64,000 nt of DNA from Thermoplasmata archaeon (GTDB taxonomy: Archaea > Thermoplasmatota > Thermoplasmata > UBA10834), in assembly GCA_029864565.1 (NCBI GenBank), contig JAOTTD010000006.1, positions 2,415 to 66,414 of the forward strand, read 5' to 3'. The notes beneath the pieces are model-generated. The model was not told the origin of the DNA and did not search any database. It saw only the letters and a list, made by a program, of their open reading frames with translations. Positions within the stretch are counted from its first letter, which is position 1. The number at the start of each line of letters is the position of its first letter. Below, piece after piece: positions 49,108-54,832 of the stretch. A program made the position numbers and the translations under genes.

Positions 49108-49968
49108 TCAACGTATGGACTTCTTCATCTCAAATTGCTTCAGAGTGACTGCGAAGTCAAACTTATCGAGCATCCTACGCGTAGCCATGTCATCGTTCAC
49201 GTTGTATATCGCGATCTTGAAAGCACCAAGCTCCCATAGCCTGTTGATAGCGAACTTGGCCAGTGATGTGCCCACGCCTCGCCGTCTCATGTCGGGCAGA
49301 ACCCCTATGAATGGTATGAACCCCGTCGTTCCTGCCCGTCTCAGCATGACGAACCCGCCATCGACGGCATAGGTTTCGCAAGTCCTGCCAGACTCTGCCA
49401 GTGCTGCAGACTTTCTCCTCTGCCAGCAATTATCGGTGTAGATGAGCCTGTGGCTCTCCTCTACGTCTTCGAGTCTGCCCCTCTCCGGCGCCGGGCCGAA
49501 TCCAGCAAACCGGGCCGATTGCCCCTCTGCAGATAGATAGGTTCTTCGTTCCGTGTATCCCAAGTTGTGATACAGGTTCAAGGCCGGTGTGTTTCCGTCG
49601 ATGACCTCAAGGAGTATTTCTTCCGCGCCCCTTTCGCGGACGTCCTCCTCGGCGGCACGCATCAGTCGCTTGCCGATGCCAGATCCGCGGTACTCGGGAA
49701 TCACTCCCAGCCCGCCTATCCAGGCCTCCTTGTCATCGACGATGGGGTTGACATAACCGACGATTGCCCCGTTGTGAACTGCAACAATCACATCCTCAAT
49801 ATTGCCCCCGACTGAACGAGTGAAATCCTGGAAGAACTGCACCGAAGACTTCAGGGGGATGATGTAGTCTGCGAAGATCTTGTTCTGAGCGTCTACGAGG
49901 TCCTCCAGTGGCCTTTTGTCGAGATGAGAGATCTCCAGATTATCCACTTTGATGTCGCGAGCAATCAT
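49108..49968 (-). CDS. Tandem GNAT acetyltransferase
   Basis: VIPEYRGSGIG and VLPDMRRRGVG acetyl-CoA motifs. Confidence 0.9.
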   Translation of the reverse strand: MIARDIKVDNLEISHLDKRPLEDLVDAQNKIFADYIIPLKSSVQFFQDFTRSVGGNIEDVIVAVHNGAIVGYVNPIVDDKEAWIGGLGVIPEYRGSGIGKRLMRAAEEDVRERGAEEILLEVIDGNTPALNLYHNLGYTERRTYLSAEGQSARFAGFGPAPERGRLEDVEESHRLIYTDNCWQRRKSAALAESGRTCETYAVDGGFVMLRRAGTTGFIPFIGVLPDMRRRGVGTSLAKFAINRLWELGAFKIAIYNVNDDMATRRMLDKFDFAVTLKQFEMKKSIR

Positions 49969-51449
49969 GCGATGTCCGGCCTCATGTGGGGGAACAGGAT
50001 GACTTCTTTGATTGACGGAGCGTTAGTCACGATCATGGCGAACCTGTCGATGCCAATGCCCAACCCTCCGGTCGGCGGCAGGCCATATTCCAGCGCCCGC
50101 ACGTAGTCCGTATCTATGGGATGAGTCTCCTCGTCACCTCCCTTCTTTAGACGGTCCTGCTCCCTGAACCTCTGCTCCTGCTCGACCGGGTCGTTGAGTT
50201 CGGAGAATGCATTTGCGAATTCCCAGCCGTTGATGAACAACTCGAACCGTTCCACAAGGTGTGGCGCGCCCCTCTTCCTCTTGGCTAGAGGCGACACCTC
50301 TATCGGATGGTCTATGATGAATACCGGGTTTATGAGTTCGGGCTGGACCTTCTGGTCGAATATCTGCGAGACTACCTTGCCGGCGTCCAAGCAATCATCG
50401 ATGTCCCTGACTCCGAGTCCTCGAGCGGCCTCCTTCGCCTTGTCAACGGTGTCTAGCGTGGAGACATCCAGACCGGTGTACTTCTCTATAGCCTCACCCA
50501 TGGTTATCCTGGGCCATGGCTTCGCGAAGTTCAGGGTTCTCTCCCCGTACTCGAACATCTCGGTTCCCACGATATGCATCGCTGTGTCGTAGAGAAGCGA
50601 TTCCGTCAGGTCCATTATGTCGTTGTAGTCTACATAGGCCTGATAGAGCTCCATCGAAGTGTATTCTGGATAGTGCTGGGCGTCGATGTCCTCGTTCCTG
50701 AAGTTCTTCCCTATCTCGTACACGGCCTCGAGCGTGCCAACGATGCATCTTTTGTGATAGAGTTCTGGCGCTATCCTGAGATACAGGTCTATGTCGAGGT
50801 AGTTGTGGTGTGTGACAAAGGGTTTGGCCAACGCTCCGCCGTATAACGGTTGGAGGATCGGCGTCTCGACCTCTATGAATCCCTTCTCATTGAGCCAGTC
50901 ACGAATGAAAGCTATCATCCTGCTCCTCTTGATGAACCGCGAGCGGACATCTTCGTTCATGAGGAGGTCCAAGTACCGCTGTCTGTACCTCATCTGGACA
51001 TCCTGAAGTCCATGGAACTTCTCAGGCAAAGGTGTCAGCGCCTTGCTGAGGACCTGGAACTCCGTGACGGCCACGGTAATCTCACCAGTCTTGGTCCTGA
51101 ACACATTGCCCTTGGAACCTACGATGTCGCCTCGATCCATGGTCTGGAAGAGTTTCCACTGCTTGTCGCCGATGTCGTTCATGCGGAAGTAGAGCTGGAT
51201 TTTCCCGTTTCGGTCCACCAGGTCGGCGAAGCCGGCCTTCCCATGAATCCTCTTCGCCATGATCCTTCCCGCAACAGAGACGACATCCGTGCTCCTTTCG
51301 GAACCCATGTCGGCGTACTCCTCCGCGACCTTCGCTGAGGAGTGGGTGCGGTCATATCTGTAGATCTTGTAGGGGTCGAATCCCTCTCTCTGCATGTTCT
51401 CAAGGTTCTTCCTCAATTGGGCCTTGAGGTCGCTATCCTGCTCTGGCAT
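49965..51449 (-). CDS. lysS: Lysyl-tRNA synthetase, class II
   Basis: OB-fold N-terminus, RYRQRYLDL, LRIAPELY, FRNE, ELNDP, GLGIGIDR. Confidence 0.98.
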   Translation of the reverse strand: MPEQDSDLKAQLRKNLENMQREGFDPYKIYRYDRTHSSAKVAEEYADMGSERSTDVVSVAGRIMAKRIHGKAGFADLVDRNGKIQLYFRMNDIGDKQWKLFQTMDRGDIVGSKGNVFRTKTGEITVAVTEFQVLSKALTPLPEKFHGLQDVQMRYRQRYLDLLMNEDVRSRFIKRSRMIAFIRDWLNEKGFIEVETPILQPLYGGALAKPFVTHHNYLDIDLYLRIAPELYHKRCIVGTLEAVYEIGKNFRNEDIDAQHYPEYTSMELYQAYVDYNDIMDLTESLLYDTAMHIVGTEMFEYGERTLNFAKPWPRITMGEAIEKYTGLDVSTLDTVDKAKEAARGLGVRDIDDCLDAGKVVSQIFDQKVQPELINPVFIIDHPIEVSPLAKRKRGAPHLVERFELFINGWEFANAFSELNDPVEQEQRFREQDRLKKGGDEETHPIDTDYVRALEYGLPPTGGLGIGIDRFAMIVTNAPSIKEVILFPHMRPDIA

Positions 51450-51605
51450 CAGGCATCTCCTCCGCTGGGTACGCTCTCATATCCTGAGGGCGTACTTAAA
51501 AGTAATCGCCCTCTGTCTCCTGCCGACGTCCACAACACTCTCCGTGTGACTGACATTCCACTCACCAGAACTCCGTCGAAACCCGTGCAATGCGCGCGGG
51601 TCTCG

Positions 51606-51980
51606 CTAAGGCTTCTTCCTTTTCTTCTCAGCATCCTCGATTGCCGCGAGAAGTTCTTCGATTCTGAACGGCTTCAGCAAGAAACCTTTGGCACCAGCAG
51701 CAAGAGCCTCCTTTTCTATGTGGAGATCCGCGCTTCCGAAGAAGATGGCGGCATCGGGGTTGATGCGGAGAATCTCCTGCGTCGCGCTCACGCCATCCCT
51801 GACAGGCATTCTCTGGTCCATGATGATTACTACCGGCTTCTCCTTCATCTTCTTGTACTTTCGGACGGCTTCCTCACCGTCAGAAGCCACATCAATGACC
51901 TCGTGACCGTGGGCTTCGAGGATGTCCCTGTACAATTCGACGATGAACTTTTCGTCGTCTACAAGAAACACGGTCGCGAT
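51606..51980 (-). CDS. Single-domain CheY-like response regulator
   Basis: FLVDD, MDQRMP..DG, SA, KPF; likely ATC start at 51980 (ORF track uses GTG 51971). Confidence 0.92.
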   Translation of the reverse strand: MATVFLVDDEKFIVELYRDILEAHGHEVIDVASDGEEAVRKYKKMKEKPVVIIMDQRMPVRDGVSATQEILRINPDAAIFFGSADLHIEKEALAAGAKGFLLKPFRIEELLAAIEDAEKKRKKP

Positions 51981-52214
51981 GATATAACCTCCAATCGTAC
52001 TCCCTCAAACGGCAGAGTTTGCGATGTCCCGGCGACGACGCTGATTACAGACCGTTAACAGGCACGGGTAGCCAGGCAGGAATACGCTAATTATACTGTG
52101 ACTTATATAATGATTTTCCTAAAGTCGCAGATGGCGCTGGACTCGATTCGGCCTAAGCGCTGACGCAGCTAAACACTTAAATACAAAAACCTGCAATTGA
52201 GCATGCGAGCATCC

Positions 52215-52382
52215 ATGGCGAAGAACAAGAAGAACGAGGGCTTCCACTCGGCCGCGGGGCTGATTCGATACTTCGATTCCGAGGACGACAAGGCACTCAA
52301 GGTTAACCCTTGGATCGTTGTGGGCCTCTGTATCGGCGTGTCTGCTCTAGTACTCGTGCTCGGGGCTATCTACCCGACCTGA
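52215..52382 (+). CDS. secG: Preprotein translocase Sec61beta subunit
   Basis: SAAGLIRYFD..KVNP + C-terminal TM helix. Confidence 0.93.
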   Translation: MAKNKKNEGFHSAAGLIRYFDSEDDKALKVNPWIVVGLCIGVSALVLVLGAIYPT

Positions 52383-52521
52383 ATCAGTCAGGGGTCGGAT
52401 AGCTGCGAATCATTTGTTGCCTAGTCCATTTACCGCTCACTTGTGTACATCAAATGTCCGAAATCTGACGAAATCAATAAATATCATCTTTGCCCTCGCT
52501 CGGTCGCTCGAGGAATCGAAC

Positions 52522-52563
52522 ATGGTGCAACACAAAGCCGTGTTTGGTAGTCTTCATGCGTAA
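52522..52563 (+). promoter_or_regulatory. Putative his-operon leader peptide MVQHKAVFGSLHA
   Basis: GAGG SD, ATG..TAA, two His codons each in a hairpin arm, downstream of an AATAAATA TATA-like box. Confidence 0.5.
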
Positions 52564-52671
52564 TCTCGCATGTGCCAGTTTGACTCCTAGAGATTTTGCA
52601 GACCCACAGACGCAGCTTAGCGAAGGCTACGTTGAGGAGTTCAGTGCGGTCGCCGCCGAACCAGAGGAGGA

Positions 52672-53544
52672 ATGTTGTTGACTCTGCTGAGAATAGCTAT
52701 ACCAAACAAGGGGAGACTGAACCAGCCAGCTGTGCGCCTCATGAACCGAATAGGTTTTCCAGTGCCTGACTCCAACAGCCGGACGCTGATAGCCGAGTTC
52801 AGGAAAGGGAGATACCAAATACTCTTGGCGAGGGCTCAGGACATCCCTGAGTTTGTCGAGATGGGTGTCGCCGACCTGGGCATCACGGGGCTGGACCTAA
52901 TACTTGAAACGAAGCGAAATGTGGTCAAGATTCGCGAACTTGATTTCGGACGGTGCAGGCTGGTCGTGGCGGTTCCTGACGAATCCGATATCCAGAATGC
53001 ATCGGAAGTGCGGAGCGAGTCCACGGTCGCCACTTCGTTCCCGAAGCTTACGGAAGAGTACTTCAAAGGACTCGGGAAGGAAGTCAAGATAGCTACTGTC
53101 ACGGGGGCCACGGAGATGACCCCTCAGATCGGGCTTGCCGATGTCATCACCGACCTCACCGAGACTGGGTCGACCCTGAAGCTCAACCACCTCAGAGAGG
53201 TAGGAGTGGTTCTCGAGTCTACCGCTGTTCTGGTCGCGAACAGCGGGTCTCTGTCCAGCAAGGGCAGCCGCATAAAAGAGATAACGAGCGCGATTGACAG
53301 CGTCATCGGAGCGTCGCGAAAGAGATATCTGATGGCCAACGTCCCGAGGACCACATTGTCCAACCTTGAGAGCCTCCTGCCCGGCATCTCAGGCCCGACC
53401 ATCATGAATATCATAGGGCGCGAGGACATCGTGGCAATACACGCCGTCGTCAACGATGACGAGGTCAACGGGATCATCGCGGTGCTCAAGGACATTGGAG
53501 GAACAGGCATACTAATCTGCCCGATCGAAAGGATGGTACTCTGA
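52672..53544 (+). CDS. hisG: ATP phosphoribosyltransferase, long form
   Basis: IAIPNKGRL, RAQDIP, GATE, DLTETGSTL; C-terminal regulatory domain. Confidence 0.97.
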   Translation: MLLTLLRIAIPNKGRLNQPAVRLMNRIGFPVPDSNSRTLIAEFRKGRYQILLARAQDIPEFVEMGVADLGITGLDLILETKRNVVKIRELDFGRCRLVVAVPDESDIQNASEVRSESTVATSFPKLTEEYFKGLGKEVKIATVTGATEMTPQIGLADVITDLTETGSTLKLNHLREVGVVLESTAVLVANSGSLSSKGSRIKEITSAIDSVIGASRKRYLMANVPRTTLSNLESLLPGISGPTIMNIIGREDIVAIHAVVNDDEVNGIIAVLKDIGGTGILICPIERMVL

Positions 53545-53545
53545 C

Positions 53546-54832
53546 ATGCTGTCATATGACATCGAGACGGTCACGCCAGAGGAGATCAAACAGATAGTCA
53601 ACAGAGGAGAGGCAGCGCTTGAATCGTCTCTCGAGCGAGCACGCCCGATAGTCGAGACAGTTCGCAAGGACGGAGACGCTGCTGTCATTCGATATGCCAA
53701 AGAGTTCGACGGGTTCGGAGGCGGCTCGTTCACTGTTCCACCAAGTACCATCAGGAGCGCCCCGTCTCGCATACCGTCGGCGTTGCTGTCCGCAATCAAG
53801 GATAGCAGGCGACGGATCGAGGCCTATCACATCAAGCAGAAGCTGAAAGGGTTCGAGTTCAAAGATTCATGCGGCGTGTTCGGGCAGAAGGTGGTCCCGT
53901 TGGAGCGGGTGGGGATATACGCCCCTGGCGGGACAGCCAGCTATGCATCATCTGTGTTGATGACAGCCGTCCCCGCGAGAGTGGCGGGGGTAGAGGAGAT
54001 CGTTCTCTGCACGCCGTCCAAGAACGGCGTTGTTGACGATGTCGTGTTGGCCGCAGCGAGTATTGTGGGCATCGAAGAGGTATATGCCATCGGAGGTGCC
54101 CAGGCGATTGGAGCAATGGCATACGGCACAGAAACCGTGCGGCGAGTCGCGAAGATGGTAGGTCCTGGCGGTGCGATCGTCACGGCTGCGAAGCTCCTCG
54201 TCAGGAAAGACTGCGAAATCGATTTCCTCGCCGGGCCTTCGGAAGTTCTGATAATTACAGACAGTAGCACCGATCCGGCGCTCGTCGCGGTGGAGATGCT
54301 AGCCCAGCTCGAACACGACCCCAACGCCATCGCTCTGGCAATCTCCACATCGAACAAGGTGATTGGAGAATCGATGAATCTGTTGGGCGGGATGATACAG
54401 AAGGCCGAGAGGAAGGATGTGATCGAAGTGGCCGCAAAGAAGGGTGCTATATTCATTAAGGTCCGCAACCTCCGACAGGCCTTGCAGATATCCAACGATT
54501 TCGCCCCAGAACACTTGGTGATAGATACAAGGGATCCCGAGGCTCTACTGGATGAGGTCCGAGCCGCCGGATCGGTGTTCTTGGGCAAATGGTCGTCCGT
54601 CGCCTTCGGAGACTACTGTGCGGGCACGAACCATGTCCTGCCGACGATGGGCATGGCTCGGTCGCGATCGGCTCTATCAGTCTACGACTTTGTCAGGACA
54701 ATTCCATATCAAGAACTGACCCGGAAGGGCGCGGAGAGGTTGGCCCCTGTTGCGGCTAAGATGGCCGAGGCCGAGGGATTGCCAGCTCACGCGTCAGCGG
54801 CAAATGCGAGAACTGGTGGTGATGACAGGTGA
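53546..54832 (+). CDS. hisD: Histidinol dehydrogenase
   Basis: GIYAPGG, GGAQAI, AGPSE, QLEH, APEHL, GDY.AGTNHVLPT. Confidence 0.97.
   Translation: MLSYDIETVTPEEIKQIVNRGEAALESSLERARPIVETVRKDGDAAVIRYAKEFDGFGGGSFTVPPSTIRSAPSRIPSALLSAIKDSRRRIEAYHIKQKLKGFEFKDSCGVFGQKVVPLERVGIYAPGGTASYASSVLMTAVPARVAGVEEIVLCTPSKNGVVDDVVLAAASIVGIEEVYAIGGAQAIGAMAYGTETVRRVAKMVGPGGAIVTAAKLLVRKDCEIDFLAGPSEVLIITDSSTDPALVAVEMLAQLEHDPNAIALAISTSNKVIGESMNLLGGMIQKAERKDVIEVAAKKGAIFIKVRNLRQALQISNDFAPEHLVIDTRDPEALLDEVRAAGSVFLGKWSSVAFGDYCAGTNHVLPTMGMARSRSALSVYDFVRTIPYQELTRKGAERLAPVAAKMAEAEGLPAHASAANARTGGDDR

Follow-up and report, generated by a model that had tools for sequence, protein, structure and literature searches.

A conserved leader ahead of an archaeal his operon points to a leader-peptide histidine sensor joined with a programmed +1 frameshift

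In the hisL and trpL systems of Proteobacteria, a short open reading frame (ORF) with codons for the cognate amino acid precedes the biosynthetic operon and the ribosome that translates it senses the charged tRNA; its stop codon lies in or next to a hairpin, and a helix with a U-rich tract stands before the first structural gene. The hisL leader of Escherichia coli has a run of seven His codons. Here we describe a leader of similar layout that precedes the his operon in a stretch of 64,000 nucleotides (nt) from a Thermoplasmata archaeon (GTDB lineage Archaea; Thermoplasmatota; Thermoplasmata; UBA10834; assembly GCA_029864565.1, contig JAOTTD010000006.1, positions 2,415 to 66,414 of the forward strand). 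The whole stretch is called the window below, and all positions are counted from its first letter. The leader differs from hisL and trpL in several ways: it has one conserved His codon, no antiterminator (2:3) pairing was found, its terminator-like helix is long-range and joins the 5' end to a segment about 60 nt away, a second, His-free frame leads to the start of the first gene, and the host is an archaeon. To our knowledge, hairpin-dependent termination is not established in archaea. An earlier note on this DNA had proposed a translated His-codon leader that reports the histidine supply to the his operon, and conservation and coding signatures strongly support this general idea; the evidence points to a leader-peptide sensor that is joined with a programmed +1 frameshift.

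The putative slip site resembles described +1 frameshift sites. CUU is the P-site codon of the +1 sites of prfB and Ty1, and slow A sites drive +1 shifts (PMC5009743). At the site of prfB, the gene of release factor 2 (CUU UGA C), a slow A site behind a P-site CUU, whose tRNA-Leu is able to shift its pairing forward by one base, is sensed and the 0 frame is a short ORF with a nearby stop (PMC5009743), similar to the situation described here. The A site of prfB, however, holds a stop codon that waits for the release factor, whereas here it is a sense codon that would be paced by His-tRNA; in addition, no stimulator resembling a Shine-Dalgarno (SD) sequence was recognised, and the new frame would deliver the ribosome to the next gene instead of encoding a functional protein, as the +1 sequence is not conserved. 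The yeast site CUU AGG C of Ty1 and ABP140 also combines CUU in the P site with a slow sense codon and needs no downstream structure (PMC5009743). The Ty1 codon is constitutively rare and sets a product ratio; in the leader, the codon is proposed to be slow only in starvation. In the ermC leader, ribosomes that have changed frame read into the intergenic spacer and thereby activate the downstream gene (PMC5009743). There, a drug (ketolide) is the trigger and a masked start is unfolded; here, the proposed trigger is the charged tRNA, the SD of hisG is not detectably masked, and both a stop-start overlap and a U-rich tract are conserved. A frameshift within the leader ORF of an amino-acid operon is described for E. 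coli pheL (+1 at CCC UGA), where it was judged incidental (PMC5009743), in contrast to the present case with a frame under clear selection to stay open and His-free up to the gene start. According to the same large review of recoding, no utilised case of starvation-specific frameshifting was known in 2016 (PMC5009743). Searches of full-text literature found no archaeal his leader, no frameshift-based amino-acid sensor and no later use of starvation frameshifting.

The leader ORF (upstream ORF 1, uORF1) lies on the forward strand at 52522-52563. It has 13 codons plus a TAA stop codon (52561-52563), encodes MVQHKAVFGSLHA and is preceded by the SD sequence GAGG (52510-52513); its stop is 108 nt away from the ATG at 52672. 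All of these elements had been listed in the earlier note, as had an A/T box (here 52476-52484), and all are in the window. When 41 related genomes were searched with the HisG protein, hisG was found in 29 of them, among them 23 of the 24 from the window's family and all 3 from its sister family. Each of the 27 hisG loci of the order, all retrieved through protein similarity alone, has the uORF in front of it, and the two hisG loci from other families of the class lack it. The pattern TGTNTGRTNGNCTTCAYNNNTRR occurs exactly once in 47 of the 49 genomes of the order, with no match in a reversed control; of the two genomes without it, one has a one-base variant (L013) and the other (G019, 98% complete) has no hisG match either. 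Combined with the start context and run across 185,579 species genomes (one genome each), the pattern gave 45 matches: 44 are in archaeal metagenome-assembled genomes (MAGs) labelled as Thermoplasmata, Thermoplasmatota, Methanobacteriota or Euryarchaeota, and one is a chance match in Idiomarina, with a frame that closes after five codons. A covariance model, applied to 151 genomes of the class, matched in the window's own family alone (14 of 15 genomes, plus G000); the model missed two sister-family genomes that carry the leader, and the 0 of 133 matches in other families are a lower bound rather than absence.

The leader set comprises 48 distinct leaders from genomes, to which the counts below refer unless stated otherwise, and 63 further leaders from metagenomes. 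Start, length and stop position of the uORF are conserved. Codons 2 to 6 are freely variable and the final seven are [V/L/M]-[F/S/Y]-[G/D]-[S/C/R]-L-H-x-stop. TGA serves as stop codon in 32, TAG in 11 and TAA in 5 leaders, and TGG, which the search pattern permitted, never occurs. In the sister family, the uORF has 14 codons and the insertion of 3 nt keeps the frame. The conserved His codon is codon 12, at the third-last position, and it is followed by one codon and then the stop: the 0-frame stop is two codons after His in 48/48 leaders. Of the two His codons on which the earlier proposal was based, the second is present in all 48 leaders and the first in two (L001, L002). A TnaC-like arrest peptide that senses free histidine was also considered as the main explanation and was rejected, as the residues of the peptide vary non-conservatively (F/S/Y, G/D, S/C/R; the last residue A/G/V/S/E).

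The proposed +1 slip site is CTT CAT G at 52552-52558 of the forward strand, with Leu in the P site and His in the A site. While the His codon is either CAT (13 leaders) or CAC (35 leaders), the Leu codon before it is CTT in 48/48. Such codon invariance is not a feature of the neighbouring coding sequence: in the first 85 codons of hisG, none of the 27 columns with an invariant residue is restricted to one codon, each of the four columns that are always Leu draws on 3-6 codons (with CTT in 0-6 of 48 leaders), and CTT provides 21 of the 168 Leu codons of the operon. The invariance is also no artefact of the search pattern, as the element is found in all genomes of the order that have hisG. The genome encodes tRNA-Leu(GAG) and one tRNA-His(GUG), and the anticodon GAG can pair with UUC as G-U, A-U and G-C. 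By the same reasoning, CUC at this position would keep a possible pairing with the GAGG but make +1 re-pairing impossible.

From TTC, a +1-frame ORF of 42 codons extends over 52553-52681 of the forward strand and ends with a TGA (52679-52681) that overlaps the start of hisG; it is part of a 63-codon ORF (52490-52681), and the +1 frame is open from inside the uORF as far as hisG. No stop codon interrupts the +1 frame of the spacer in 47/48 leaders, in comparison to 17/48 and 14/48 for the other two frames, and about 42-45% of dinucleotide-shuffled spacers are open. With TTC (the CTT|C overlap) as its first codon, the frame is 32-51 codons long. Its stop codon overlaps an ATG, GTG or TTG as NTGA in 42/48 leaders; in the other six it is found from 18 nt upstream to 16 nt downstream of the start. 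The open +1 frame, seen in three-frame translation, explains why 46/48 leaders, and 12 of the 14 distinct lengths, have a multiple of three nucleotides between the uORF stop and the LRIA motif of HisG. Upstream, the frame is closed by stops, the nearest being four codons before TTC (L026).

After the open +1 frame had been found, a prediction was set: a frame that is read when His-tRNA is scarce should avoid His codons (CAY). In the 48 leaders, the +1 frame has 12 His codons among 1822 codons, versus 69 and 47 in the other frames and 47.6 +/- 6.5 in shuffled sequences. If the hairpin arm is left out, 9 His codons remain in the +1 frame versus 41 and 22 in the others, and none of 300 dinucleotide shuffles (29.1 +/- 4.9) is as low. 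The same holds for the 27 spacers that are less than about 60% alike (4 versus 27 and 17; dinucleotide shuffles 17.0 +/- 3.5, 0/300 as low). Metagenomes were then scanned with the uORF pattern, which holds no downstream feature, and 115 loci were obtained. In 13 of these matches the start is out of frame (gaps of 17 or 18 nt), and none of them is followed by hisG; the other 102 are in frame, with hisG following in 92. The remaining 10 in-frame matches are at a contig edge (4) or chance-like (6); a chance-like match on metagenome contigs L135 and L137 encodes MVECLPLYGRLHI and no hisG comes after it. Dropping 29 leaders that were at least 95% identical to one already in the set left 63 new leaders that stay below 95% identity to the 48 and among themselves, and most of these share at best 60-70% identity with any of the 48. 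In the new leaders, the +1 spacer is stop-free in 63/63 (other frames: 16 and 22), its stop overlaps the start as NTGA in 55, with the other 8 stops within -5 to +11 nt of the start, and the spacing is a multiple of three in 54. His codons make up 3 of the 1973 codons of the +1 frame, versus 45 and 46 in the other frames and 37.3 +/- 5.5 in shuffles, of which 0/300 are as low. In this new set, the +1 frame is about ten-fold poorer in His codons.

The start codon of hisG is affected by these findings. The ATG at 52672, which the ORF listing and the earlier note had taken as the start, lies 1 nt after the SD sequence GGAGG (52666-52670), whereas a TTG at 52678 lies 7 nt after it, the same distance at which the conserved NTG start is found in relatives. 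This NTG position is kept in relatives, 9 nt before the LRIA motif, and the start is TTG in 15, ATG in 15 and GTG in 12 of the 48 leaders. Given the conserved position and the NTGA overlap, hisG of the window most likely starts at TTG 52678 and extends to 53544 of the forward strand; the gene encodes the long form of ATP phosphoribosyltransferase (Pfam HisG and HisG_C). Two leaders, L009 (genome G011) and L153 (a metagenome contig), have CTG at the position of the hisG start, behind a normal SD and with no ATG, GTG or TTG in frame nearby: this is either CUG use, reinitiation or a sequence error, and it would fit a reinitiation of hisG.

Upstream of the uORF, an element that resembles the B recognition element and TATA box of archaeal promoters, GAAATCAATAAATAT, is found at 52470-52484 of the forward strand; its A/T box, AATAAATAT (52476-52484), keeps a fixed spacing in the leaders compared, with its end about 38-39 nt ahead of the uORF start codon. 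The archaeal TATA box is centred near -26. By its consensus, the A/T box is probably an archaeal promoter, and its position predicts a transcription start at 52505-52508, which is also where sequence conservation begins (GCTCGAGG). The region is best understood as a transcribed his-operon leader that would hold a translated sensor ORF. A scan for bacterial promoters and terminators, which is ill-suited to archaea, found none.

The predicted transcript would form a helix, P1, between its 5' end (CTCGAGGAATCG, 52507-52518, containing the GAGG of the uORF) and a segment behind the uORF (TGACTCCTAGAG, 52581-52592), both on the forward strand. For most of the 48 leaders, the best duplex partner of the initial 12-18 nt of this transcript, with the uORF SD among them, lies 14-35 nt past the stop codon (-15 to -25 kcal/mol, mean z -1.49). 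The earlier note had paired ACTCCT (52583-52588), which is in the window, with AGGAGT or, as CTCCT, with the hisG SD; the comparison gives no support to either pairing and places ACTCCT in the helix with the transcript 5' end. The stop hairpin (HP) at 52555-52572 of the forward strand consists of the arms CATGCG (52555-52560) and CGCATG (52567-52572) and the loop TAATCT, which holds the stop codon. It is predicted in 46/48 leaders. At the middle base of the last sense codon, the pair is C-G in 22, G-C in 19, U-A in 3 and G-U in 1 leaders: the amino acid varies and the pairing is kept. Pair 58-69 of alignment A3 is likewise GC in 19, CG in 4, UA in 2 and AU in 1. A third possible helix, H1', was predicted by RNAalifold between AACATGG (52519-52525, including the start codon) and CCGTGTT (52538-52544); it is 100% paired, with positions that are invariant or changed on one side, and has no covariation support. 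In genus g1, P1, H1' and the stop hairpin together have 95.7% of cells paired, versus 25-48% with a slid partner; for P1 alone the value is 91.0%, and in three of its pairs both bases have changed. For the other genera, the paired share of the structure is 89.7%, versus 27-43% with slid partners. P1 and HP covary. Run on all 48 leaders together, RNAalifold returned invariant H1 pairs alone; it overlooked P1 and HP, whose registers are not the same in all genera, and these two helices were tested per sequence and per group. Both hairpins of the earlier note can be drawn in the window. The stop hairpin is conserved and covaries; the first (AACAC at 52529-52533 with GTGTT at 52540-52544), whose 5' arm falls within the variable uORF codons, is not conserved and does not covary.

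Directly after P1, at 52594-52597 of the forward strand, there is a TTTT, a candidate site of attenuation or termination. The earlier statement that there is no U-tract is therefore not quite right: the TTTT occupies the position of a conserved T-rich tract, as the T-richest 7-mer of the spacer is found 27-35 nt after the stop, behind P1, in 33/48 leaders (row count). In two leaders of the sister family (L025 and L027 of family f2), a TTTTTT directly follows the stop hairpin (CUCC/GGAG) and a second TTTTT follows a P1-like pairing, an arrangement that looks closer to a bacterial intrinsic terminator than anything in the window's family. In the middle of the spacer (52618-52629) there is a further hairpin with a four-base loop, TAGC-GAAG-GCTA, with CAG before it; judged by eye, it seems to be retained at this place in relatives, with changed stems, and other genera have GGC-GAAG/GGAG/UCCG-GCC. 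The Rfam search of 51000-54000 on both strands gave three sub-threshold matches at chance level, none in the leader proper.

Our interpretation, which we consider probable on balance, is that a starved ribosome slips by +1 at CUU-CAY, reads a His-free frame to hisG and, by doing so, prevents attenuation and couples translation. A ribosome would load at the GAGG and AUG near the 5' end of the RNA and translate uORF1. With ample His-tRNA(His), CAY and one further codon would be decoded and translation would terminate at the stop in the hairpin loop. After such normal termination, the 5' end could pair with the segment about 20 nt downstream (P1) and, owing to the U-rich tract that follows, to some 110 nt of RNA left untranslated, or to both, transcription would end or hisG would be poorly served. 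With scarce His-tRNA(His), peptidyl-tRNA-Leu would wait on CUU next to an empty A-site CAY, and the waiting tRNA-Leu could re-pair one base forward, from CUU to UUC. A slip at the His codon is the sole entry by which starvation would raise +1 reading, and it is the one route we see that is present in every leader and has the right regulatory sign. The shifted ribosome would then proceed in the open and nearly His-free +1 frame across the 3' strand of P1 and the U-rich tract and would stop at the TGA that overlaps the hisG start (NTGA), with the result that the operon is read through and translation of hisG is coupled. Sequence comparison backs the uORF, the CUU-CAY-N3-stop arrangement, the open and His-poor +1 frame, the NTGA overlap, P1, HP and where the T-rich tract lies. 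From these we infer that transcription begins at the predicted start, that the uORF is translated, that the ribosome slips in dependence on histidine and that the output is anti-termination, coupling or both. The earlier note had missed the invariant CUU-CAY, the open, His-free +1 frame to NTGA and the 5'-end helix with its U-rich tract, and these features are decisive: they point to a frameshift-driven switch rather than to classical stalling attenuation or to the purely translational RNA switch that had been thought likelier.

Classical stalling attenuation without a frameshift accounts for part of the data, and we regard it as rather unlikely. Here, a ribosome at the His codon would melt H1' and the stop hairpin; with the SD and AUG of the uORF kept open for more ribosomes, or with the 3' arm of the hairpin freed, termination at P1 and the U-tract would be blocked. 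With ample His, the ribosome would terminate and depart, P1 would form and transcription would end. The conserved uORF, its single His codon and its stop in the loop of a covarying hairpin, similar to bacterial 1:2 hairpins, fit this model, as does P1, which holds the uORF SD and has the T-rich tract behind it. The geometry is suitable too: going by usual footprint sizes, a ribosome with CAY in its A site would leave the 3' arm of the hairpin free, and a ribosome at the stop would cover it. Stalling leaves unexplained, however, the open +1 frame of 47/48 and 63/63 leaders, its NTGA end, its loss of His codons and the exclusive use of CUU. Moreover, the model depends on one regulatory codon, and no conserved antiterminator (2:3) pairing was found.

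The open +1 frame with its NTGA end is also what would be expected if the leader held two overlapping ORFs, an arrangement that we consider very unlikely: the +1 ORF would be self-initiated, ribosomes would reach hisG by termination and reinitiation, and the short ORF would modulate this. Initiation would be at the TTG, ATG or CTG that stands three codons ahead of the slip site or, in genus g1, at the AUG within CAUGCG. The codon three before the slip site is indeed TTG in 35 and ATG in 6 of the 48 leaders (tally), and TTG starts are common in this lineage, as the start codons of hisG illustrate. In the other leaders, however, it is CTG (6/48) or CGG (1/48). The codon lacks an SD and is preceded by the uORF's variable stretch. 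A start at this place is 6-8 nt before the P site of the paused ribosome and would be covered in starvation, giving the wrong regulatory sign, and neither the invariance of CUU nor the stop that is always two codons after His is explained. A structured RNA switch (a riboswitch or a site that a protein or tRNA binds) with an incidental small ORF is scarcely credible: the nucleotide-level conservation of TGTNTGRTNGNCTTCAY extends to third codon positions and P1 and HP covary, but no Rfam family reaches threshold, a single-sequence fold of the leader (52490-52690) is no better than shuffles (z = -0.36), the stop varies between TAA, TAG and TGA without ever being TGG, the 3-nt insertion in the sister family keeps the frame, and a frame-specific loss of stops and His codons over about 40 codons is impossible from structure alone.

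Several points weigh against the frameshift interpretation. Full-text searches yielded no experimental case of a hungry-codon +1 shift in an archaeon. All leaders are related sequences, and every count given above overstates independence. Part of the CUU conservation could come from a possible GAGG-YCUU pairing, as the GAGG can pair either within P1 or with YCUU. No SD-like stretch that could act as a stimulator in front of CUU, as in prfB, was recognised, and the 3' end of the 16S rRNA was not found in this MAG. Independent initiation at the TTG or ATG of the +1 frame is possible in 41/48 leaders, and the uORF and hisG are not in the same frame in 2/48 and 9/63 leaders. The slip itself does not explain the role of the stop hairpin. 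Masking of the hisG SD, as proposed in the earlier note, is not supported: in about 40 of the 48 leaders for which it was computed, the unpaired probability is similar to that of shuffled-leader controls. Since the strong SD in front of hisG shows no detectable masking, the OFF state would rest on termination at a weak T-rich tract, with runs of at least four T in only 12/48 leaders. RNA-library data consist of two short contigs, about 90-95% alike, that come from a relative and were in one metatranscriptome; they cover 52435-52572 and 52658-52784 and are silent on start, end, strand and level.

The window holds a complete his operon after sec61-beta: hisG, hisD, hisC, hisH, hisA, hisB, hisF and hisIE, as well as a gene for a PHP-family phosphatase. 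The gene sec61-beta (52197-52382) is directly upstream of the leader, which lies in the 289-nt gap between it and the operon. The same neighbour adjoins the leader in 20/27 loci of the order (genera g1, g2 and g4); genus g3 and the sister family have different upstream neighbours and the leader is still kept. Further upstream, a 238-codon ORF on the forward strand (51342-52058) has no Pfam match and overlaps the 5' end of a class II aminoacyl-tRNA synthetase gene on the opposite strand (49965-51449); it may not be a gene. This genome was also scanned for similar leaders. Scanning for a promoter, SD and small ORF gave three matches, two of them with a stop-free +1 frame (the his leader and one on C27), and scanning for CTT-N3-N3-stop with a +1 ORF gave three as well, of which the two besides the his leader have no SD and are chance-like; one of these appears to precede an Hsp20-like ORF. 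A looser scan for sister leaders was too noisy for use.

RNA-level control of amino-acid biosynthesis in archaea is largely unknown, and attenuation by leader peptides is regarded as bacterial. If the interpretation is true, the his leader would be the first well-supported ribosome-mediated amino-acid attenuator in Archaea. It may well be the first natural hungry-codon frameshift switch, in which a single His codon behind a slippery CUU carries the signal over about 125 nt to hisG. Frameshifting at a hungry codon would then be a selected sensor and not mere error, and a single codon could suffice as an amino-acid sensor. The signature, an open frame without the codons for one amino acid that leads to a stop-start overlap, can be searched for in front of other operons, and the design is compact and portable and could serve in amino-acid-responsive switches. 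For archaea, the leader would provide a handle on the coupling of transcription and translation and on termination.

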